A stretch of 46,956 nt of DNA from a virus (lineage: Duplodnaviria; Caudoviricetes), in IMG/VR virus record IMGVR_UViG_3300032216_000338, positions 1 through 46,956 of that record. One strand, written 5' to 3'. The notes beneath the pieces are model-generated. The model did no database searches. It had not been told where the DNA came from and was given only the letters and a program-made list of their open reading frames with translations. The translations under genes were made by a program, and so were the position numbers. Position 1 is the first letter of the stretch; the number at the start of each line of letters is the position of its first letter. Shown piece after piece: positions 19,793 to 46,956 of the stretch.

Positions 19793-20197
19793 TTAACTTG
19801 ATTTAACTGAAGGTTTACGCACTGTGATACCAAATTCACGCATCACGTTCACACCGGGCGGCAAACCATCTGCATGACGCTCGGACATGAATTCTTTAAA
19901 ATTACCTTGATGAAGACGTGCTTCAAACAATTCAACAGCGCCTGTTTCTAATACAAACTTGTTGAAGTTATCGCGGTCTGAACAGGTATATCTTTCTTTC
20001 AAACTCTTTATTACTGTGCCGTGAGAAGTCTTAACACTATCTGCCTTGATCTCATTGCACCCCGCTAACATCTCCTGCTCTAGTAAAGACATTTCTGCTT
20101 TCAGAGCTTCGTCCTGCATTTTGTAAGCGGACTCAATCTTTTCACGCTCTCCGCGAATAGTCAAGTAAGTTTTAACTAATTCCTCCATATCACTCAT
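19793..20197 (-). CDS. Conserved coiled-coil phage replication-module protein
   Basis: AGAGGA RBS before ATG 20197, N-terminal coiled coil, C-terminal LPPGVN motif. Confidence 0.6.
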   Translation of the reverse strand: MSDMEELVKTYLTIRGEREKIESAYKMQDEALKAEMSLLEQEMLAGCNEIKADSVKTSHGTVIKSLKERYTCSDRDNFNKFVLETGAVELFEARLHQGNFKEFMSERHADGLPPGVNVMREFGITVRKPSVKSS

Positions 20198-21767
20198 AAA
20201 TTTCCTCTTTATATAAATCGACAAGTTTCTCGTGTGAATCAACTTTATTTTGCAACATCTTGTACATCTTTCTTTCTACTTCCGACCCCTGCAAATGCAC
20301 TACTGTCATACGATTCTTCTGACCCACGCGATCTATTCGGGCTATACATTGTAGATACGTTTCTACACTCATAACAGGCGACCAAAAAACTATAGTGTCA
20401 GCGGCAGTTAGCGTTACACCGTGCGAAGCTGCCTGTGGTTGGATTACTAACACTCTAGGTTCCTGTGTAGTCTGAAACTTATTAACGATGCGTTGCCGTT
20501 CACCAGCAGATACAGCGCCGTTAATAATATCGCTACTAATTCCTAGTCCTTCAAGAAACTTACTAACCAACTCAATCGTGTGCGTGTAAGGTACAAACAC
20601 TAATACCTTCTGGTCAGTCTGGTCTATTACTTCTTCCAACGCTTTGAGTCGTGGCGACACATCAAACTCAACTACTTCTTTCGTATCGGAATACACCGCG
20701 CCGCCCGATACTTGCAACAACTTACTTAACATAGCCGCAGCATTGACTGCTGATATTTGTTCTCCCGCCGCTTCTACAAGCATGTCGTCCTTTAATTTTT
20801 TATAGTATTTCGCAGCTTGCTGTGTCAACGGTACTTCACGCGTCTGATAAAGAACTTCTGGTAGATCAAGACACTCTGCCTTAGTAAATCTAATAGCGGG
20901 CTGTAACGCATCAAACACTATTTGTTTGGATGTAGGCTTGGGTAGCCACTTGAACCGTGTAACCTGCTGCATTACTTTGTCACGCCACGCTGTGCTGTAC
21001 TTAGGAACTTTGCTTGGGGAGATCAAACGCGCTAAGCCAAACGCATCAAGGGGTGACTGTGATGCAGGTGTGCCTGTCAACATCCATAGCCGTGTCTCAG
21101 GTTTAATTAACTTCGCTAGTATCTTCCAACGCACAGTGCTTGTAGACTTGTAGGCGTTTGCCTCATCAACAACTATTAAATCAAAGCCCCCGCGATTTAT
21201 TTCTTCGGCTAATATACCTACGCCATCGTAGTTGGTGACTATGAAATCATACTCACCTCTAATAATCTTTTTACGTTTCTCAGCGGAGCCATAAGCTACA
21301 CCAACTGATCTGTGCATGGCGGTCTTGAACACATCTGCTTGCCACGCTGAATACATAATCGTTAACGGACATATCACAAGCACGCGTTTGACCAATCCCA
21401 AGCTCATCAGATAGTCCGCTGCCCATACCACGGAGGATGTCTTGCCTGTACCCGCTTCGTTGAAACAGAACGCGCGCCGTCTACTAGCTAGGAATGAGGC
21501 AGTAGTTTTCTGGTGGTCGAACGGTGTATAAAGACCGGGCCACTTATAGTCGCGCAACATGGGTGAGGGTAAACTGTTATAGCTGAAGGACTCAGCTATG
21601 AACGACGTCTCGTCATGACCCCAATAAACAAGAAGCTCAGTCTCGTTATCAGCTCGGTCTAGAATCTCGCACTTCTCAACGTAAGTGAGTATGTGGTCTG
21701 CATCTGTGTTTGACGTTCGGAACTGTAAAGCTGCGTTATCTACAACTGTAAACTTAATGTCTTGCAC
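20190..21767 (-). CDS. SNF2-family (SF2) helicase
   Basis: EAGTGKT, VVDEAN, LTGTP, HGVTLT and ARIDRVGQ motifs. Confidence 0.9.
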   Translation of the reverse strand: MQDIKFTVVDNAALQFRTSNTDADHILTYVEKCEILDRADNETELLVYWGHDETSFIAESFSYNSLPSPMLRDYKWPGLYTPFDHQKTTASFLASRRRAFCFNEAGTGKTSSVVWAADYLMSLGLVKRVLVICPLTIMYSAWQADVFKTAMHRSVGVAYGSAEKRKKIIRGEYDFIVTNYDGVGILAEEINRGGFDLIVVDEANAYKSTSTVRWKILAKLIKPETRLWMLTGTPASQSPLDAFGLARLISPSKVPKYSTAWRDKVMQQVTRFKWLPKPTSKQIVFDALQPAIRFTKAECLDLPEVLYQTREVPLTQQAAKYYKKLKDDMLVEAAGEQISAVNAAAMLSKLLQVSGGAVYSDTKEVVEFDVSPRLKALEEVIDQTDQKVLVFVPYTHTIELVSKFLEGLGISSDIINGAVSAGERQRIVNKFQTTQEPRVLVIQPQAASHGVTLTAADTIVFWSPVMSVETYLQCIARIDRVGQKNRMTVVHLQGSEVERKMYKMLQNKVDSHEKLVDLYKEEIYE

Positions 21768-21965: not shown

Positions 21966-22220
21966 CTATTTCATTGAACCGTCTGACTTACGTTTAAAGC
22001 TACGATTCTTGTGCGGCGATTCTAAACGAACTCCATCTGCATTACTACCACCTTTGGATAACGCTTTGACATGCGCTACGTCCTTACCCTTTCGGCTAAT
22101 ACCTTTCTTGTCCATCTCTCGCCTAGCGCGCTGGCGCTCCATGCGGTCATCATGCTCACCCCGAGCCAACTCCTGTTGGTACTCTTTCTTATAAGGTCTT
22201 GGTGTCTTTGTGTATGCCAT
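21966..22220 (-). CDS. Small HNH-like endonuclease
   Basis: KDVAHVKALSKGGSN...HKNRS motif. GGAG RBS before ATG 22220. Confidence 0.7.
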   Translation of the reverse strand: MAYTKTPRPYKKEYQQELARGEHDDRMERQRARREMDKKGISRKGKDVAHVKALSKGGSNADGVRLESPHKNRSFKRKSDGSMK

Positions 22221-22353
22221 GTTTTGCTCCATGAATTTCGTTGTTTGTTTCTTTATCGCGCCGCGTATTAAATAAATTTTTAGCCAACGCTTCGGTCAAC
22301 GCTCTTTGTGTTGCTTGCATTGACGCTGCTAGTGCTTTGGTGTACCCGCTCAT
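22189..22353 (-). CDS. 54-aa ORF resembling the MCP spine helix (not in ORF track)
   Basis: MSGYTKALAASMQATQRALTEALAKNLFN...; AAAGGA RBS in the repeated start module. Confidence 0.6.
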   Translation of the reverse strand: MSGYTKALAASMQATQRALTEALAKNLFNTRRDKETNNEIHGAKHGIHKDTKTL

Positions 22354-22441
22354 TTGTTAGTCCTTTTACCCATCTACCAAATTGTCTGTATATCTGCTGT
22401 TGTTTCGACTCTGGATACATTTCCACTATGGATGATTTCAT
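22280..22441 (-). CDS. 53-aa ORF (not in ORF track)
   Basis: MKSSIVEMYPESKQQQIYRQFGRWVKGLTN...; same AAAAGGAnTAACAAATG start module. Confidence 0.5.
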   Translation of the reverse strand: MKSSIVEMYPESKQQQIYRQFGRWVKGLTNERVHQSTSSVNASNTKSVDRSVG

Positions 22442-22648
22442 TTGTTAATCCTTTTTCCTTCCTACGCAACCTCTGTAAGTTGCCCCGAACTTTCCTCAAC
22501 AATCTTTTCGACTCTGAGGGGGAGGGCGCAATGTATCTCTGCGTTAACTTCTTTTGGTCGTCTGTATTCATGTTTAAAAATATCATCTAATACTTTATAT
22601 ACCTCGTCTTTAAAGGCTTGCGCTGTCAGTAGCGGCATTTGTTACTCC
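22351..22648 (-). repeat. Three copies of translation-start module GGAnTAACAAATG
   Basis: Copies at 22351-22363, 22439-22451 and 22636-22648. The first two extend to 17/18 identity (22350-22367 vs 22438-22455). Confidence 0.85.
22462..22638 (-). CDS. 58-aa ORF resembling the MCP N-terminal helix (not in ORF track)
   Basis: MPLLTAQAFKDEVYKVLDDIFKHEYRR...; GGAG RBS; aligns with the MCP start at 46712. Confidence 0.6.
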   Translation of the reverse strand: MPLLTAQAFKDEVYKVLDDIFKHEYRRPKEVNAEIHCALPLRVEKIVEESSGQLTEVA

Positions 22649-22831
22649 GTGTATATGGTCGTTATGTACGGTTACTGTATTGTGTTTGATAGTAGAAGTA
22701 TATGGGTCATGCTCTAATTCAAGTAGTATTGATCTCGTATGGGTGTACGTAGGAGAATGTTTAACCGTTTGTGTGTATGCCCGTGGGTCACTCCATCCAT
22801 AACTATATATTGAATTTCTAGACACCTTCAC
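22610..22831 (-). CDS. 73-aa ORF with MCP C-terminal-like motif YSYGWSDPRA
   Basis: GAGGTG RBS before GTG; motif occupies residues 9-18. Confidence 0.6.
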   Translation of the reverse strand: MKVSRNSIYSYGWSDPRAYTQTVKHSPTYTHTRSILLELEHDPYTSTIKHNTVTVHNDHIHGVTNAATDSASL

Positions 22832-23024
22832 ACTTCACCTCATGCACCTCGTCGTTATTAATGTCATCGGCTCCTTCATCGCCTGTCGTCCGTATGTGCG
22901 CGTAACTCCACTTACTATGTTCTGCTGTGTATCTTTGCGTAGCCACCCTCATAACTGATTCTGGTACTAAACCAAGTGGGCTATCACCAAGACTTTTTAA
23001 TCGTGTAAGTCTTATCATTTTCAT
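22818..23024 (-). CDS. 68-aa hypothetical protein, weakly MCP C-terminus-like
   Basis: ATGA-coupled to the nuclease gene; contains ESVMRVATQRY. Confidence 0.55.
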   Translation of the reverse strand: MKMIRLTRLKSLGDSPLGLVPESVMRVATQRYTAEHSKWSYAHIRTTGDEGADDINNDEVHEVKCEGV

Positions 23025-23677
23025 CGGCTTCTGTAATGCTCACATGTTGTAACAGGACACCATCCACACAGCGGCGTAGGATTCATCTGCCATGTGTCAT
23101 TCTCATACGATATTGTCAAGCGTTCTATATCAGGCGTAAAGTTATTCCATAAGGACTCACACTGCTCCCTCGTATACTCTTCCGGTATAAAGTTATTATG
23201 CAAGACAAACATCAGCCCCGCTTTAACTTTATTAACTTCTGGAAAGTGCGCAAACGTCATCAGTGCCATCAGTCGTAACTGTTTTAAATCAGGGTACTTG
23301 TCACTACCCGTCTTGTAGTCAACGATGAACGCTGTGTCTCCTTCTATCACCATGAAGTCAACGATACCACGCACCCAATAATCTTTACCCCAACCGCAAG
23401 GCTGCTTGTCGGCGTTCAACGCCATTCGATGCTCAATATACCTTGTACCGTCAATCTCCAATAGCGGGTCAACCATACTCGCAAACCGTTTGTAGTTGTG
23501 GGGTAACGCTGTACCATCCTTCGCGTAGTTTTCCAACGCGCTATGAACGTCTGTTCCGTAACGCATTTGTTGCGTCGGTATCGTTTCATATTTTTTAAGG
23601 ACTTTAACTTCATGATACTGTTTTGGGCAATTAATATACTGTTTAAGACTTGAGAAAGACCATTTAATGGGGTTCAT
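23021..23677 (-). CDS. PD-(D/E)xK exonuclease (Cas4/RecB-like)
   Basis: WSFSSL...CP, GIVD, IVDYKTG, QL..MA, and C-terminal CGWC...C cluster. AAAGGTG RBS before ATG 23677. Confidence 0.85.
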   Translation of the reverse strand: MNPIKWSFSSLKQYINCPKQYHEVKVLKKYETIPTQQMRYGTDVHSALENYAKDGTALPHNYKRFASMVDPLLEIDGTRYIEHRMALNADKQPCGWGKDYWVRGIVDFMVIEGDTAFIVDYKTGSDKYPDLKQLRLMALMTFAHFPEVNKVKAGLMFVLHNNFIPEEYTREQCESLWNNFTPDIERLTISYENDTWQMNPTPLCGWCPVTTCEHYRSR

Positions 23678-29970: not shown

Positions 29971-31239
29971 TTATTTATTAAATTTAACCAACTTACCTTT
30001 CGGCGGTTTGAAGTTTCGATTCTCCGTCACTAGCCATAGAGTATCGATGCTAGTCTCCCACCTTGGTCTCTCTTCCACGTAGCCATCAGTAAAGACCACT
30101 ATGCAATCGGGCGAATACTTCTTATCCTTCAGGTAGTCCGACACACACGACACCATAGTGCCGCCACCACCCAATGGTTTAAGAATGTCTTTGATGTTAG
30201 GTGAGTCACCTGCGAACACCTGCTCACCATGTACCTCTGTATCCCACCAGAGTATTCTCACCGTGTCTGGCTTACATACATCACAGATCACCTGCAACTG
30301 ATAAGCGAACGCGCCCAACTCCTCTGTACCAATAGACCCTGACGTGTCGATAGCCACGCATACCTCAGTCAATGTCTCTGTGTCCTCGCTTGGTGCGTAA
30401 ATGTCATTAGCCAAGAGATTGCGATTGAACCTACGCCATGTCAGCTCGTCCTTACCTCGCACGCTGTTAGATACAAAGTCACGGAACTCGTCCTTCCAAT
30501 TGATCGGTATCTCCAATGACTGACTTATCTCACGCGGGATGTTAGCCCCCAGACGACCCGCCAACATACCACCCTCACGCAAGGCTCGACCTACCTTCTC
30601 CTCGTACTCCTTCAACTCCTTGGCATCCTTACCCTCGGCTCCGCTCATGTCATGCTCATCGCTGTCCTGAACGGTGACTTGTCTGCCGTTGATGTTTATG
30701 ACTTCACCCTGACCTGAACCGTTATTCTCATCACCATCGTCAGACTCACAACTCCCGCCTTTGCTACCACTACCTCGTTGCTTTCGTTGCGGATTTTGTT
30801 TCTTTAGTTCGTTGTATATCTCACGTACCGACCACCCATCGAACTTGTGATCGAGTATCGCGCTCTCAGGCAGCTTGCATAATGGCTGTGCTTGATGCTT
30901 ACCTTTGATGTTATCGATGATGTTGTTAACGACTATATCCATTGACACGTTAGCTAGAACGTGATCCTCTTTCATCAAGTCCTTGTGTCTGTGGATATGA
31001 AGTAACGCTACATGCAGATTCTCATGCAGCACCACCGCTCTTGCTTCCTCGTCAGACAACTTAGCCATAAACTCCTTGCCATAACGCTTGTTCTCACCAT
31101 CGGTGTATGCGGTAGGTATACCTTCCTTGACCTCACTCTCACCCATTAACATTACGCTGCCGTACAACGCTGTCTCTGGATGACGCATCATGATGATGTG
31201 ATTCTTCTTCAGTCTTTCTTCGTCTGATAGATATGACAT
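29971..31239 (-). CDS. Metallopeptidase-vWA protein (DUF2201-like)
   Basis: TAYTDG, HENLH zincin motif, MIDAS DTSGS, GGGGT and FTDG. Confidence 0.88.
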   Translation of the reverse strand: MSYLSDEERLKKNHIIMMRHPETALYGSVMLMGESEVKEGIPTAYTDGENKRYGKEFMAKLSDEEARAVVLHENLHVALLHIHRHKDLMKEDHVLANVSMDIVVNNIIDNIKGKHQAQPLCKLPESAILDHKFDGWSVREIYNELKKQNPQRKQRGSGSKGGSCESDDGDENNGSGQGEVININGRQVTVQDSDEHDMSGAEGKDAKELKEYEEKVGRALREGGMLAGRLGANIPREISQSLEIPINWKDEFRDFVSNSVRGKDELTWRRFNRNLLANDIYAPSEDTETLTEVCVAIDTSGSIGTEELGAFAYQLQVICDVCKPDTVRILWWDTEVHGEQVFAGDSPNIKDILKPLGGGGTMVSCVSDYLKDKKYSPDCIVVFTDGYVEERPRWETSIDTLWLVTENRNFKPPKGKLVKFNK

Positions 31240-31409
31240 AATTCATTCCTCACTTTTTTGTATGCCTCGTCATAACCTGCGTTATAAGCGGCGGCGATTG
31301 GTAATGTAAGTGCATCGCTTTTTATATTGCGTTTGTACTCGCTTTCATACTTCATATAAAAAGTGCATGCATCATTGTCCTGTCTAAACAACTCATCGAA
31401 CTCGTCCAT
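31209..31409 (-). CDS. Hypothetical protein
   Basis: Small ORF inserted between the AAA and vWA genes. Confidence 0.5.
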   Translation of the reverse strand: MDEFDELFRQDNDACTFYMKYESEYKRNIKSDALTLPIAAAYNAGYDEAYKKVRNELCHIYQTKKD

Positions 31410-31411
31410 GA

Positions 31412-32512
31412 TTAGAGATACTTGTAGTTGTCTTTAGTCCATGCCTTAACGTCATCATTGTTAGCGGCAAGTTTAGTAGTGCGTTTATTACCCATCAACA
31501 TAGTGAAGAACACCGACTGCAACTCACTATGATTCATACGCTTGATGAACTTCATGTACTGACTAAGCTCGTCCTGTGTTTGTAAGTCATCCACCGCATT
31601 GAACATCATCATGCAAAGTGCAGCCATATCACTCGGCATAGGTACGCCCTCTGGGTTAGCAATTACGTCCTTAGTTTTAATAACCTGCGACTCCATCTCC
31701 ATGTAAACAGACAACGCTTTCGCCGCCGCTAAGCCGATCGTACCTGCAAGTAACACTTCAGCCACCTGTGTACCCATAACTTCACGGTTAACCACGATAC
31801 GATTAGCTTTGTACAATGAGCGAGGAGACACGAACGACACCGCTTGTCCTGCCTTGGTTGGATTAAATATAAACTCATTGTTCTCCTGACCACCGTCCAT
31901 GTATGACGCTAAGCAACGTGGATTCATCGCAACGAACGAACGCAAGGTAGATGACACGCCATTCTCACCCGCCCAGATATTCCAACGCCGCGCATCGGGT
32001 TTTTCCATACGTACCAAACAAATACGATTGCCTTGGTGCGCCTGTACGAAATCGCCTACGCCATCGCTTCCGTTGTTACTTGTGCCAAACACGATAGACC
32101 CAAGTGGCAGCTCCACGTCACCGACCATACGCTCTAACATCAATCGCGTAAACAACACACCCATCAACTTGGGAACCTTGAACGCCTCGTCAAGCATGAT
32201 GACTTTGGGCTTGTTGCTGTGTAACTTGAACAACCCACCGATGTACTGCTCAAGTGACTTTGTCTCGTGGTTTGGGATTGTGCCCGCTATGTCCATATAA
32301 TCTTTTGACGGACAGTCAACGTAGATGTAGTCGTACTTGTCTCCCAACGCTGCGCGCATGTTCTTGAGAATCGAAGTTTTGCCAACACCCGGTTCGCTCA
32401 CTATGATTGGTGTGATGTGAGAGTCTTCTCCCTCAACTGTCTGGGATAGGATTGGAATAACTGTCGCCGCTTGGTCGATAGTAATCGTTTGTGTAAAGTT
32501 TATTTTTGACAT
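31412..32512 (-). CDS. AAA+ ATPase (MoxR/dynein-related type)
   Basis: Walker A EPGVGKT, Walker B IMLDE, sensor TSN, SPRS motif. Confidence 0.88.
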   Translation of the reverse strand: MSKINFTQTITIDQAATVIPILSQTVEGEDSHITPIIVSEPGVGKTSILKNMRAALGDKYDYIYVDCPSKDYMDIAGTIPNHETKSLEQYIGGLFKLHSNKPKVIMLDEAFKVPKLMGVLFTRLMLERMVGDVELPLGSIVFGTSNNGSDGVGDFVQAHQGNRICLVRMEKPDARRWNIWAGENGVSSTLRSFVAMNPRCLASYMDGGQENNEFIFNPTKAGQAVSFVSPRSLYKANRIVVNREVMGTQVAEVLLAGTIGLAAAKALSVYMEMESQVIKTKDVIANPEGVPMPSDMAALCMMMFNAVDDLQTQDELSQYMKFIKRMNHSELQSVFFTMLMGNKRTTKLAANNDDVKAWTKDNYKYL

Positions 32513-40273: not shown

Positions 40274-40942
40274 ATGGACAAAATACAGAAACAAGCCGCA
40301 AGACAGGCCGCGCTGGTGATGGAAGCCGACATTAAAAAGCGCAAAGAAGAACACATGCGGCAGTACCCCAACGACTATATAGCTGCACATAGACCTACAC
40401 ACAAAACAAAAGAAGGCGTTGAATCAATGCCTACGCACTATCACGCAGGTGATATGGGTAAGTTTCTTGATACATATAAGAAAGCACAACAGTACGGCGC
40501 GCCAGCTATACCAGCAGAAAAACTAGCTAGTATGGCTCTTGTAGAAGGTCGGGAAGATTTTGGATATAACGGGATATATAACTATAACAACCCAAGGGCT
40601 AAAAAGTTATTTGATACTTTAGTAGATCAAGGCGCAGATAGAAATTCAGCGGGGTTTGCCGCTGCTGTGTTGGATAAGAATGAGGTTGCTCACCGATTAA
40701 AGATTCCATTTGAAACCGCGTGGAATGGCACGGGTAAATCCATATGGGATAAAACAGGCGGCGATTACGCTAGTACTGTTAAACAAGCTGAAAAAGTTTT
40801 AGAACACCCGAAGAATAAACCTATCTACGACTTTATTAAGAACAAATTAAGTATGGAAGAAGAGGGCGCTCCCGTACTAGCAAGTGCTAATTCTGTGCAA
40901 ATGCCGCAAGAATATACCGAAGGTAATTGGAAACTAATATGA
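40274..40942 (+). CDS. Hypothetical protein inserted between terL and portal
   Basis: 222-aa ORF; ALVEGREDFGYN and AWNGTG motifs. Confidence 0.65.
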   Translation: MDKIQKQAARQAALVMEADIKKRKEEHMRQYPNDYIAAHRPTHKTKEGVESMPTHYHAGDMGKFLDTYKKAQQYGAPAIPAEKLASMALVEGREDFGYNGIYNYNNPRAKKLFDTLVDQGADRNSAGFAAAVLDKNEVAHRLKIPFETAWNGTGKSIWDKTGGDYASTVKQAEKVLEHPKNKPIYDFIKNKLSMEEEGAPVLASANSVQMPQEYTEGNWKLI

Positions 40943-41484
40943 GCGAAATGACTTGTATGTATTACCAGCAAGCGATGCCGGTAGGCTTTTGCGACTATAT
41001 CTTGGACTCTATTGATTGGTCTGTAGCGCAGGACGCCACAATATACAAGGATACTGGAGCAGAACAACAAAACTCACACCGTAAAGCAGAGATAGTCTCT
41101 GACCATTTACTTTCACCCATAGGGTCGGTTTGTAAGAACTATTTGGTATCCGGCAATGCGAAAGGTCAATGGGCTGGGTCTATATGCAACTTCGATATGG
41201 TGCAGATCATAAAGTACACCGAAAGCGGGCACTACGCTTGGCATAACGACGTTTTGCCTCCTCATGACGGGATTGTGCGGTGTGTATCGTTAGTGCTGTT
41301 ATTAAACGACCCCTCTGAGTTTGAGGGCGGACTGCTACAGATTAAAAACAAAAGCGACAACCTCCTGAAGAATAAGGGAGACATAGTTGTGTTCGATGCG
41401 AAAGCTGAACACCGTGTAACACCGGTAACAAGTGGAGTTAGATATACCGCTGTGTGCTGGGCATATAAATACTACGAGGAATAA
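40939..41484 (+). CDS. 2OG-Fe(II) dioxygenase (prolyl-hydroxylase-like)
   Basis: HYAWHND (HxD), FEGG, HRVTPVTSGVRY. Confidence 0.9.
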   Translation: MSEMTCMYYQQAMPVGFCDYILDSIDWSVAQDATIYKDTGAEQQNSHRKAEIVSDHLLSPIGSVCKNYLVSGNAKGQWAGSICNFDMVQIIKYTESGHYAWHNDVLPPHDGIVRCVSLVLLLNDPSEFEGGLLQIKNKSDNLLKNKGDIVVFDAKAEHRVTPVTSGVRYTAVCWAYKYYEE

Positions 41485-46711: not shown

Positions 46712-46956
46712 ATGGCTATTTCACGCGCACAACTACTGAAAGAGCTGCTCCCCGGCCTGAACGCATTGTTTGGTCTGGAGTATGCTCGCTACGGCGAAGA
46801 ACACAAAGAGATTTACGAAACTGAAACCTCTGAGCGTTCTTTTGAAGAAGAAACTAAACTTTCAGGTTTCAGCGCTGCGCCTGTTAAGAACGAAGGTAGT
46901 GCAATTCGTTACGACAACGCACAAGAAGCTTGGACAGCACGATACAACCACGAAAC
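46712..46956 (+). CDS. Major capsid protein, 3'-truncated by window edge (not in ORF track)
   Basis: AAGGAG RBS; MAISRAQLLKELLPGLNALFGLEYARYGEEHKEIYETETSERSFEEETKLSGFSAAPVKNEG... Confidence 0.9.
   Translation, partial: MAISRAQLLKELLPGLNALFGLEYARYGEEHKEIYETETSERSFEEETKLSGFSAAPVKNEGSAIRYDNAQEAWTARYNHE

Follow-up and report, generated by a model that had tools for sequence, protein, structure and literature searches.

The window, that is, the whole stretch of DNA that was analyzed, is an entire virus record of 46,956 bp with an estimated completeness of 73%. Its plus strand carries a late operon with the terminase, the portal and, from position 46712, the major capsid protein (MCP), and its minus strand carries a replication operon with the DNA polymerase, an exonuclease, an array of very small genes, an 88-aa phrog_4590 protein and a helicase. 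The array consists of six overlapping open reading frames (ORFs), here called cassettes A, B, C, X, D and E, on the minus strand between the exonuclease and the 88-aa HNH-like gene, and each of them contains a short peptide tag:

23021..23677, minus strand: PD-(D/E)XK exonuclease, the upstream anchor (PF12705, 1.5e-16; phrog_69)
22818..23024, minus strand: cassette A, 68 aa, with an H-x-R module and the tag NDEVHE at 22842-22856; belongs to a family of 11
22610..22831, minus strand: cassette B, 73 aa, GTG start, resembling the MCP C-terminal motif YSYGWSDP, tag NDHIHG at 22649-22663
22462..22638, minus strand: cassette C, 58 aa, putative mimic of the capsid N-terminal helix, tag NAEIHC at 22531-22545; its family matches MCP residues 1-30
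22374..22586, minus strand: cassette X, whose body is basic and helix-like and lies in the +1 frame relative to C, tag NEIIHS at 22428-22442
22280..22441, minus strand: cassette D, 53 aa, tag NERVHQ at 22340-22354; singleton family, no score against the MCP
22189..22353, minus strand: cassette E, 54 aa, YTKALA..M..T, resembling MCP residues ~105-125, tag NNEIHG at 22231-22245
21966..22220, minus strand: conserved HNH-like protein, 88 aa, the downstream anchor (phrog_4590, 3.8e-10), starting in the +1 frame after the tag of E
46712..46956, plus strand: first 81 aa of the phage's own MCP, ending with the contig; source of the copied pieces

A first-pass annotation of this DNA had marked A, B, C, D and E on the minus strand, and all five are borne out at the coordinates above; its count has to be raised to six, since the conserved ORF X had been overlooked. 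It had placed the ORFs between an exonuclease and an HNH gene: the exonuclease is confirmed by PF12705, whereas "HNH" holds by eye only, as the 88-aa protein matched no Pfam family and only phrog_4590, which has no assigned function. The observation that the capsid-like pieces lie out of MCP order was correct, and they sit in the replication operon. In contrast, what had been described as "low-complexity tails" is an out-of-frame reading of the next, overlapping genes, and the shared tag, the cassette architecture with its +1 chain and the epitopes of foreign coats had been missed.

The TGA stop of the exonuclease overlaps the ATG of cassette A. Cassette X has no start beside the tag of C, and its ATGs at 22586 and 22571 have a weak Shine-Dalgarno (SD) sequence. 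Cassette B is predicted to form a β-hairpin (model pLDDT 70, pTM 0.34). The DNA similarity of D to X, which was equaled by 0 of 1000 shuffles, comes partly from a shared 3' end, and D is possibly a diverged duplicate of X. No significant family was found for any of the cassettes tested against Pfam and PHROGs, the ESM Atlas returned no usable match for cassette B, and a tblastn search with a 40-aa C variant against annotated phages gave no match. Elsewhere in the window, positions 29971-32512 hold an AAA ATPase and a DUF2201 metallopeptidase-VWA pair, for which the PHROGs label "HNH endonuclease" conflicts with Pfam. A 222-aa and a 185-aa gene, the latter 2OG-Fe(II) oxygenase-like by eye, lie between terminase and portal (40274-41484) and are missing in G001 and G002.

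The N-terminus of the window's MCP is 64-80% identical in tblastn to the MCPs of HTVC023P/027P-type pelagiphages and of 65-kb freshwater phages, and a complete relative of it matches PF25209 and PF10124. An MCP profile was built from 70 distinct complete MCPs, drawn from 80 loci that are 94-99% identical to the 81 aa of the window; it matched none of the PDB sequences. A model of the MCP had a pLDDT of 32, so that the terms N-arm, E-loop and spine helix are assigned here by position in an HK97-type fold. Against this profile, cassette E scores 8.5 bits, B 3.9 bits and C 1.8 bits, values reached by 0, 3 and 2 of 1000 shuffles, respectively. Cassette A scores -1.7 bits, which 200 of 1000 shuffles equal, and D and X give no score. 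The capsid likeness claimed by the first-pass annotation therefore stands for three of its five ORFs (B, C and E) and falls for A and D, which have no MCP match.

Profiles of whole cassette families, searched against 478 ORFs and their reversed decoys (best decoy 7.8 bits), bear out the same three assignments: the C family matches MCP residues 1-30 with 40-43 bits, the B family residues 281-299 with 14-16 bits (the motif itself lying at ~284-295) and the E family residues 103-119 with 13 bits. Matches near 10 bits in this search are borderline, because one family gave 11.6 bits to a probable shadow ORF. With the MCP profile, 22 of 103 distinct cassettes score higher than any of 206 decoys, N-terminal copies reaching 43 bits, and a further family, which does not occur in the window, matches MCP residues 51-69. 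For the bodies of A, X, D and the LPTVQE family, no source was found among the 478 ORFs, 32 late-gene families (none above decoys for A) and the helicase and coat profiles. A separate family with the motif SREFSFGW.PV (L085:5802-6026, L181, L205, L210) resembles the C-terminal MCP motif by eye and scores best, marginally, on two other late genes.

The tag has the consensus N-[ED]-x-[IV]-H-G-[VA], and its core N-x-x-[IV]-H is present in all six cassettes. At the DNA level, the pattern encoding N-x-x-[IVM]-H occurs 23 times in the window against 16 expected, and six of these matches fall within 22231-22856 on one strand. In 49 distinct gaps from relatives, fetched via the exonuclease and via the motif itself, a search with free third positions found 99 N..H contexts compared with 7 K..H, 4 N..Q and 4 K..Q; the opposite strand of the same 49 gaps gave 1 and 1. 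The motif is read in frame, and its codons vary synonymously at their third positions. Together with the dominance of N..H, this variation indicates that the motif is conserved as a peptide. The tag is also nearly universal among related cassettes: the best 120 of 654 C-type matches all carry it (108 in strict form and 12 with Ala before His), although the search profile for this type contained the tag, as do all 62 protein clusters among the database matches of E type, 47 of which score above the best of 620 shuffles. All 29 representatives of A and B type are tagged, one with His in place of Asn; they are all 57-73 aa long, and none lies inside a long protein.

We considered whether the tag could be the SspB-binding half of the ssrA tag, which has an aromatic residue four positions after Asn. 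This candidate was rejected, as His dominates at that position and is fixed in alignments A1, A2, A5 and A6; no Tyr or Phe variant was seen there among rows largely chosen through the motif. The top match to the tag profile in the proteome is a helicase segment, (G)VTNEIINGA (gene 20190-21767, residue ~408), as it is in relatives, and its 13.8 bits are marginal against 12.4 bits for the best decoy. No cassette matches the helicase profile, and a helicase origin of the tag is at most a weak lead. The corresponding segments in the helicases of two relatives read exactly NELIHG. No partner gene was found to track the tag; the AAA/VWA-peptidase module occurs in tagged and untagged relatives alike.

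The tag also marks the junctions between genes. Its codons or adjoining bases supply the start and the ribosome-binding site of the next gene, nearly always in the +1 frame. The distance from one tag to the next is 1 mod 3 in 89 of 98 cases, as is that from the last tag to the ATG of the HNH-like gene in 40/40 arrays, many of which were fetched by a pattern that fixes this last spacing. The next genes start at tag codons 0, 4/5, 8 or 12 with SD pairing like that of ordinary genes, for example, about -6 kcal/mol for codon-8 starts compared with -2.75 for random ATGs. An adjacent start is missing in seven of 65 junction types; all seven follow a C cassette, the C-X type of the window included, and in six of them an ATG in the same frame lies 3-14 codons upstream. 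The +1 frame has a stop at codon 6 after the tag in 31 of 101 junctions, and in 23/23 arrays the C frame stops at -56 to +1 nt relative to the start of the next gene but one, in four of them as TAATG. Short tails occur in 11 of 65 cases against 24 expected; after grouping, the figures are only 8 vs 4 families, and we therefore do not claim selection for long tails. No RNA structure (mean folding z -0.4 to 0.05), no Rfam match and no shared slippery codon were found at the junctions, and neither a promoter-like site nor a minus-strand terminator was found in 22189-23024. We reason that the +1 register arises because the starts are embedded in an open frame and are inherited with the junction. 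Degenerate junctions were also seen (L086-L089, L093, L209; L090, L168), in some, the tag persists even though a stop intervenes and the following gene begins in frame 0; in others, a deletion has brought two tags together in a single ORF.

Among loci chosen by the exonuclease alone, tagged arrays recur in 17 of 23 close relatives and in 0 of 48 distant ones. They hold 1-7 cassettes drawn from 20 sequence clusters, and in a quick tree 27/27 tagged rows fall into one clade of 33 rows with a support of 99, with seven label changes overall. In all eight pairs in which the same body is followed by a different next cassette, the switch occurs at the tag, where DNA identity drops from 82-100% to 19-42%. 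Cassettes are thus exchanged at the tag, and the array is dispensable and variable. In distant relatives, the gap between the exonuclease and the HNH-like gene holds other inserts (L113, L115, L121, L123, L126, L139; L159, L160), either a 60-70 aa "IDYAHP.MMAE" protein overlapping the start of the HNH-like gene or a Cys-rich, nuclease-like gene of ~148 aa.

The cassettes are under purifying selection. Comparison of the window with its relatives, with pairs below 55% identity dropped and D having no relative, gives dN/dS values of 0.17-0.46 in 15 of 16 pairs: 0.22-0.35 for A, 0.23 for B, 0.17-0.41 for C, 0.17-0.28 for E and, for X with its six relatives, 0.26-0.46 in five of six pairs, the remaining pair having a value of 1.22. 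Shifted frames mostly give 0.7-3. When the values are pooled, 10 of 13 families have in-frame ratios of 0.27-0.44, and shifting the frame usually raises them. The C copies of the phages' own MCP type retain 15-20 of 24 MCP residues, and where a copy keeps the MCP residue the codon is that of the window's MCP in 55 of 143 cases (38%), compared with 64% in true MCP genes. Among the best 120 of 654 C-type matches, 91 are own-type copies, and R5, L9, E11, P14, L16, F20 and E23 are unchanged in 91/91 of these, whereas Q7 is kept in 8 and replaced by E/D in 82 copies; only 11 copies retain A18, and none retains L22. Positions 7 and 18 show acidic gains. The pattern looks as if one binding face had been kept. 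In the MCP itself, residues 1-21 are invariant in 70/70 relatives. The copies are therefore old, selected and shaped, and they are not debris. A decayed second capsid gene, which the first-pass annotation had already argued against, is excluded, as is a capsid pseudogene: the array recurs in relatives, its proteins are kept while synonymous sites drift, the frame-specific dN/dS values do not fit neutral decay, and the MCP-like pieces follow each other in the order 284-295, 1-30, 105-125 with unrelated bodies between them, which is not collinear. Frameshifted remains of one contiguous capsid pseudogene, which that annotation had named as one possible refutation, were not found.

Some of the pieces point to capsids of another type. 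A pattern derived from the diverged C variant of L105 occurs at 106 places in IMG/VR, among them 63 distinct ORFs over 250 aa, where it lies mostly at the N-terminus; of those tested, 4/4 are P22-like coats (PF11651) and 2/2 match phrog_283. A profile of 30 other diverged C peptides, the window's included, matches the N-terminus of 56/56 such coats with a median of 4.9 and a top score of 6.5 bits, compared with a best background score of 4.9 among 1081 and at most -0.8 for the own MCP. This subfamily aligns to coat residues 5-21, and hhalign gives it an E-value of 7.5e-4 to the coat (probability 25%) against 0.022 to the own MCP. The first half of the window's C is closer to the P22-type coat, and its F..EY end is like the own MCP. 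The window's C thus probably resembles the N-terminus of a foreign P22-like coat, a match that is weak and partly circular. The C variants of L098 and L105 match this coat clearly (15-16 bits), and G003 carries a P22-coat-type C cassette alongside an ordinary own-type MCP.

Untagged sister phages place comparable pieces on another carrier, a helical "R-M...PEEF" domain with 31 members in 25 loci, which matches no PHROG and for which all ESM Atlas leads are below 0.9. Examples, by locus and position, are:

L113:737-1255
L117:961-1440
L293:15702-16106
L144:2291-2629
L298:11699-12142
L140:1544-1903

The C-terminal tails of these proteins carry either own-MCP segments (48-72, 191-220, 276-299) or segments of the N-terminus of the P22-like coat. 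Of the 31 tails, 11 reach at least 2 bits against the MCP profile, a score that 1.3% of shuffles attain; three tails score 6-10 bits against the N-terminus of the coat, for which the best shuffle reaches 5.8. These results rest on the family-level test; an unbiased scan of 5541 early-strand ORFs found only three ORFs from untagged phages that beat the best decoy (8.6 bits). A third carrier, with an "EELKTKML" domain (L111:181-447, L120:174-566), carries a copy of the N-terminal helix of the MCP at its end. In other phages, the proteins at L321:1127-1405, L331:880-1545 and L423:175-642 have an internal piece of P22-like coat N-terminus behind an unrelated leader that contains an (LLW)xPGAKT-like stretch, two of them with an RRxFL motif.

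The explanation that we favor, with a confidence slightly short of even, is that the products of the tagged mini-genes are baits that would occupy host capsid sensors, the tag serving as a handle for a partner. Each product would be an independent small protein composed of a bait, the tag and an arbitrary tail, and its expression from within the replication operon would precede that of the MCP. The capsid piece would bind a host capsid sensor, and the tag would engage one common partner, for example, a protease, or act as a processing site at which the arbitrary tail is removed. Because CapRel and Thoeris respond to capsid proteins and Lit is switched on by the Gol peptide (available text of PMC9712102 and PMC12578639), a bare capsid piece might itself trigger defence, and the tag partner may turn such a possible trigger into an inhibitor. 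The bodies of A, X and D would be baits copied from other sources. The bait reading is consistent with a tag kept as a peptide, with old and selected copies in which one face is apparently retained, with dispensable, variable arrays swapped at the tag, and with sister phages that place the same MCP segments on another carrier. Against it, free capsid peptide can activate a sensor, as Gol does Lit, half of the window's six cassettes lack a match among the capsid and late proteins tested, no partner gene was found that follows the tag, and foreign P22-like pieces are more simply explained by competition between phages. It is also possible, though on balance doubtful, that the arrays are a recombining library of capsid-epitope baits, own and foreign, in which the tag would combine a handle to a common effector with the start and ribosome-binding site of the next gene and a crossover point; the bait's partner, either host capsid sensors or a rival's scaffold, would then be delivered to that effector. 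The main rival, which we consider unlikely and yet worth serious attention, is that the peptides sabotage the head assembly of competing phages by binding scaffold or coat, with the tag recruiting a disposal step. Decoys and interference with head assembly had both been put forward by the first-pass annotation. The rival reading would account for the C variants that match the P22-like coat, also in G003, whose MCP is of a different type, and for the acidic gains at positions 7 and 18, given that in P22 the scaffold attaches to acidic residues of the N-arm through its basic helix-turn-helix and touches the spine helix with a second site (available text of 10.1101/2022.12.13.520362). However, the foreign-coat match of the window's own subfamily is weak and partly circular, and the invariance of MCP residues 1-21 means that own-type copies cannot separate rival from self except by timing.

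The remaining explanations appear much less probable than these. The 1 mod 3 spacing of the tags, together with the seven junction types that lack a start beside the tag and have an open and selected +1 frame, might suggest that the tag is a translational recoding signal, either a +1 frameshift or a ribosome hand-over, that fuses ORFs or couples their translation. We regard this as improbable: most junctions have a normal SD sequence and start, a shared slippery codon, RNA structure and an Rfam match were all looked for and not found, the +1 frame is often closed at codon 6, the placement of C-frame stops suggests that the tails are read, and an ATG within an open frame should land in +1 far more readily than in +2. 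Regulation of the phage's own capsid assembly, for example, by keeping early coat or scaffold inactive, would suit the 91 of the best 120 (of 654) C-type copies that are close to the own MCP N-terminus; it too has little to commend it, as arrays are missing in 6/23 close and 48/48 distant relatives, their content shuffles freely and foreign-coat versions exist. Foreign epitopes and the ability of the short capsid peptide Gol to activate a defence protease (available text of PMC9712102) would also fit peptides that deliberately trigger or prime host immunity against superinfecting phages, but abortive infection set off from the replication operon would harm the carrier and no cognate immunity gene was identified, which makes this very improbable. 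Finally, exchanges map to the motif and the tag resembles the helicase segment, as might be expected of recombination-captured neutral debris or of a DNA repeat or nuclease target acting as a decoy at the DNA level; this is largely refuted by a motif that is read in frame and varies synonymously, by frame-specific selection, and by a helicase match that barely exceeds decoys and is not shared by any cassette body.

If the bait reading is correct, the arrays would be of some consequence, as bacterial immunity is commonly triggered by capsid proteins, which are hard to mutate, and the arrays would provide another escape route; alternatively, they would be a new weapon between phages. The pieces that have been chosen repeatedly (MCP 1-30, 51-69, 103-125 and 281-299, and the P22-like coat N-terminus) would map the epitopes of sensors or scaffolds, and capsid pieces might be usable as baits to fish out new sensors. 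Combining peptide tag, ribosome-binding site and crossover point in a single junction would be a compact build for a variable gene array.

Judged from sequence, this is a real, selected and modular system without a described family, whose function we infer. The MCPs of the own type (PF25209/PF10124) and the P22-like coats (PF11651) are the source of copied segments of 15-30 residues; a cassette, in contrast, spans at most roughly a tenth of the fold and cannot serve as a capsid subunit. The capsid-redirection proteins of satellites, namely CpmA/CpmB of SaPIs and Rcm, are likewise small and interfere with the head assembly of another phage. They differ from the cassettes in being satellite-encoded and are not known to be arrayed or tagged. 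A search of the open-access literature found no phage mini-proteins or inhibitors made of capsid fragments, and the available text of 10.1101/2023.04.06.535777 concerns host-side decoys only. Defences triggered by capsid protein are well documented in the available parts of the reports on CapRel-SJ46, Gol-Lit and PifA (PMC9712102) and on a staphylococcal Thoeris system (PMC12578639), with predicted CapRel contacts to the capsid spine helix and the P-domain sheet (PMC9712102). These systems, in which even a short capsid peptide is recognized, supply the selective pressure assumed here; in the same available text, phages escape from them by mutation of the capsid itself. As in the PeSL cassettes of T4-type phages, where promoter/terminator stem-loops shuffle small non-essential genes (available text of PMC2839356), recombination takes place at a repeated element between small genes; unlike the PeSLs, which are non-coding and consist of a sigma-70 promoter plus a terminator stem-loop, the repeat here encodes a peptide tag, and neither a stem-loop nor a promoter-like site accompanies it. 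The closest published parallel in logic is Bodo saltans virus, whose ankyrin-repeat ORFs carry fragments of essential viral genes and have been proposed to be decoys for host factors (available text of Deeg et al. 2018, PMC5871332). Both systems have pieces of essential proteins on a shared module in an expanding array, with a proposed decoy role that may include degradation of the bound factor. The cassettes gave no ankyrin or other significant Pfam match. Bodo saltans virus is a eukaryotic giant virus that places pieces of enzyme domains on a large ankyrin carrier, and the decoy role is hypothetical there as well (same available text), whereas the array described here belongs to a phage and consists of 50-75 aa proteins that join capsid pieces to a six-residue tag in overlapping frames.
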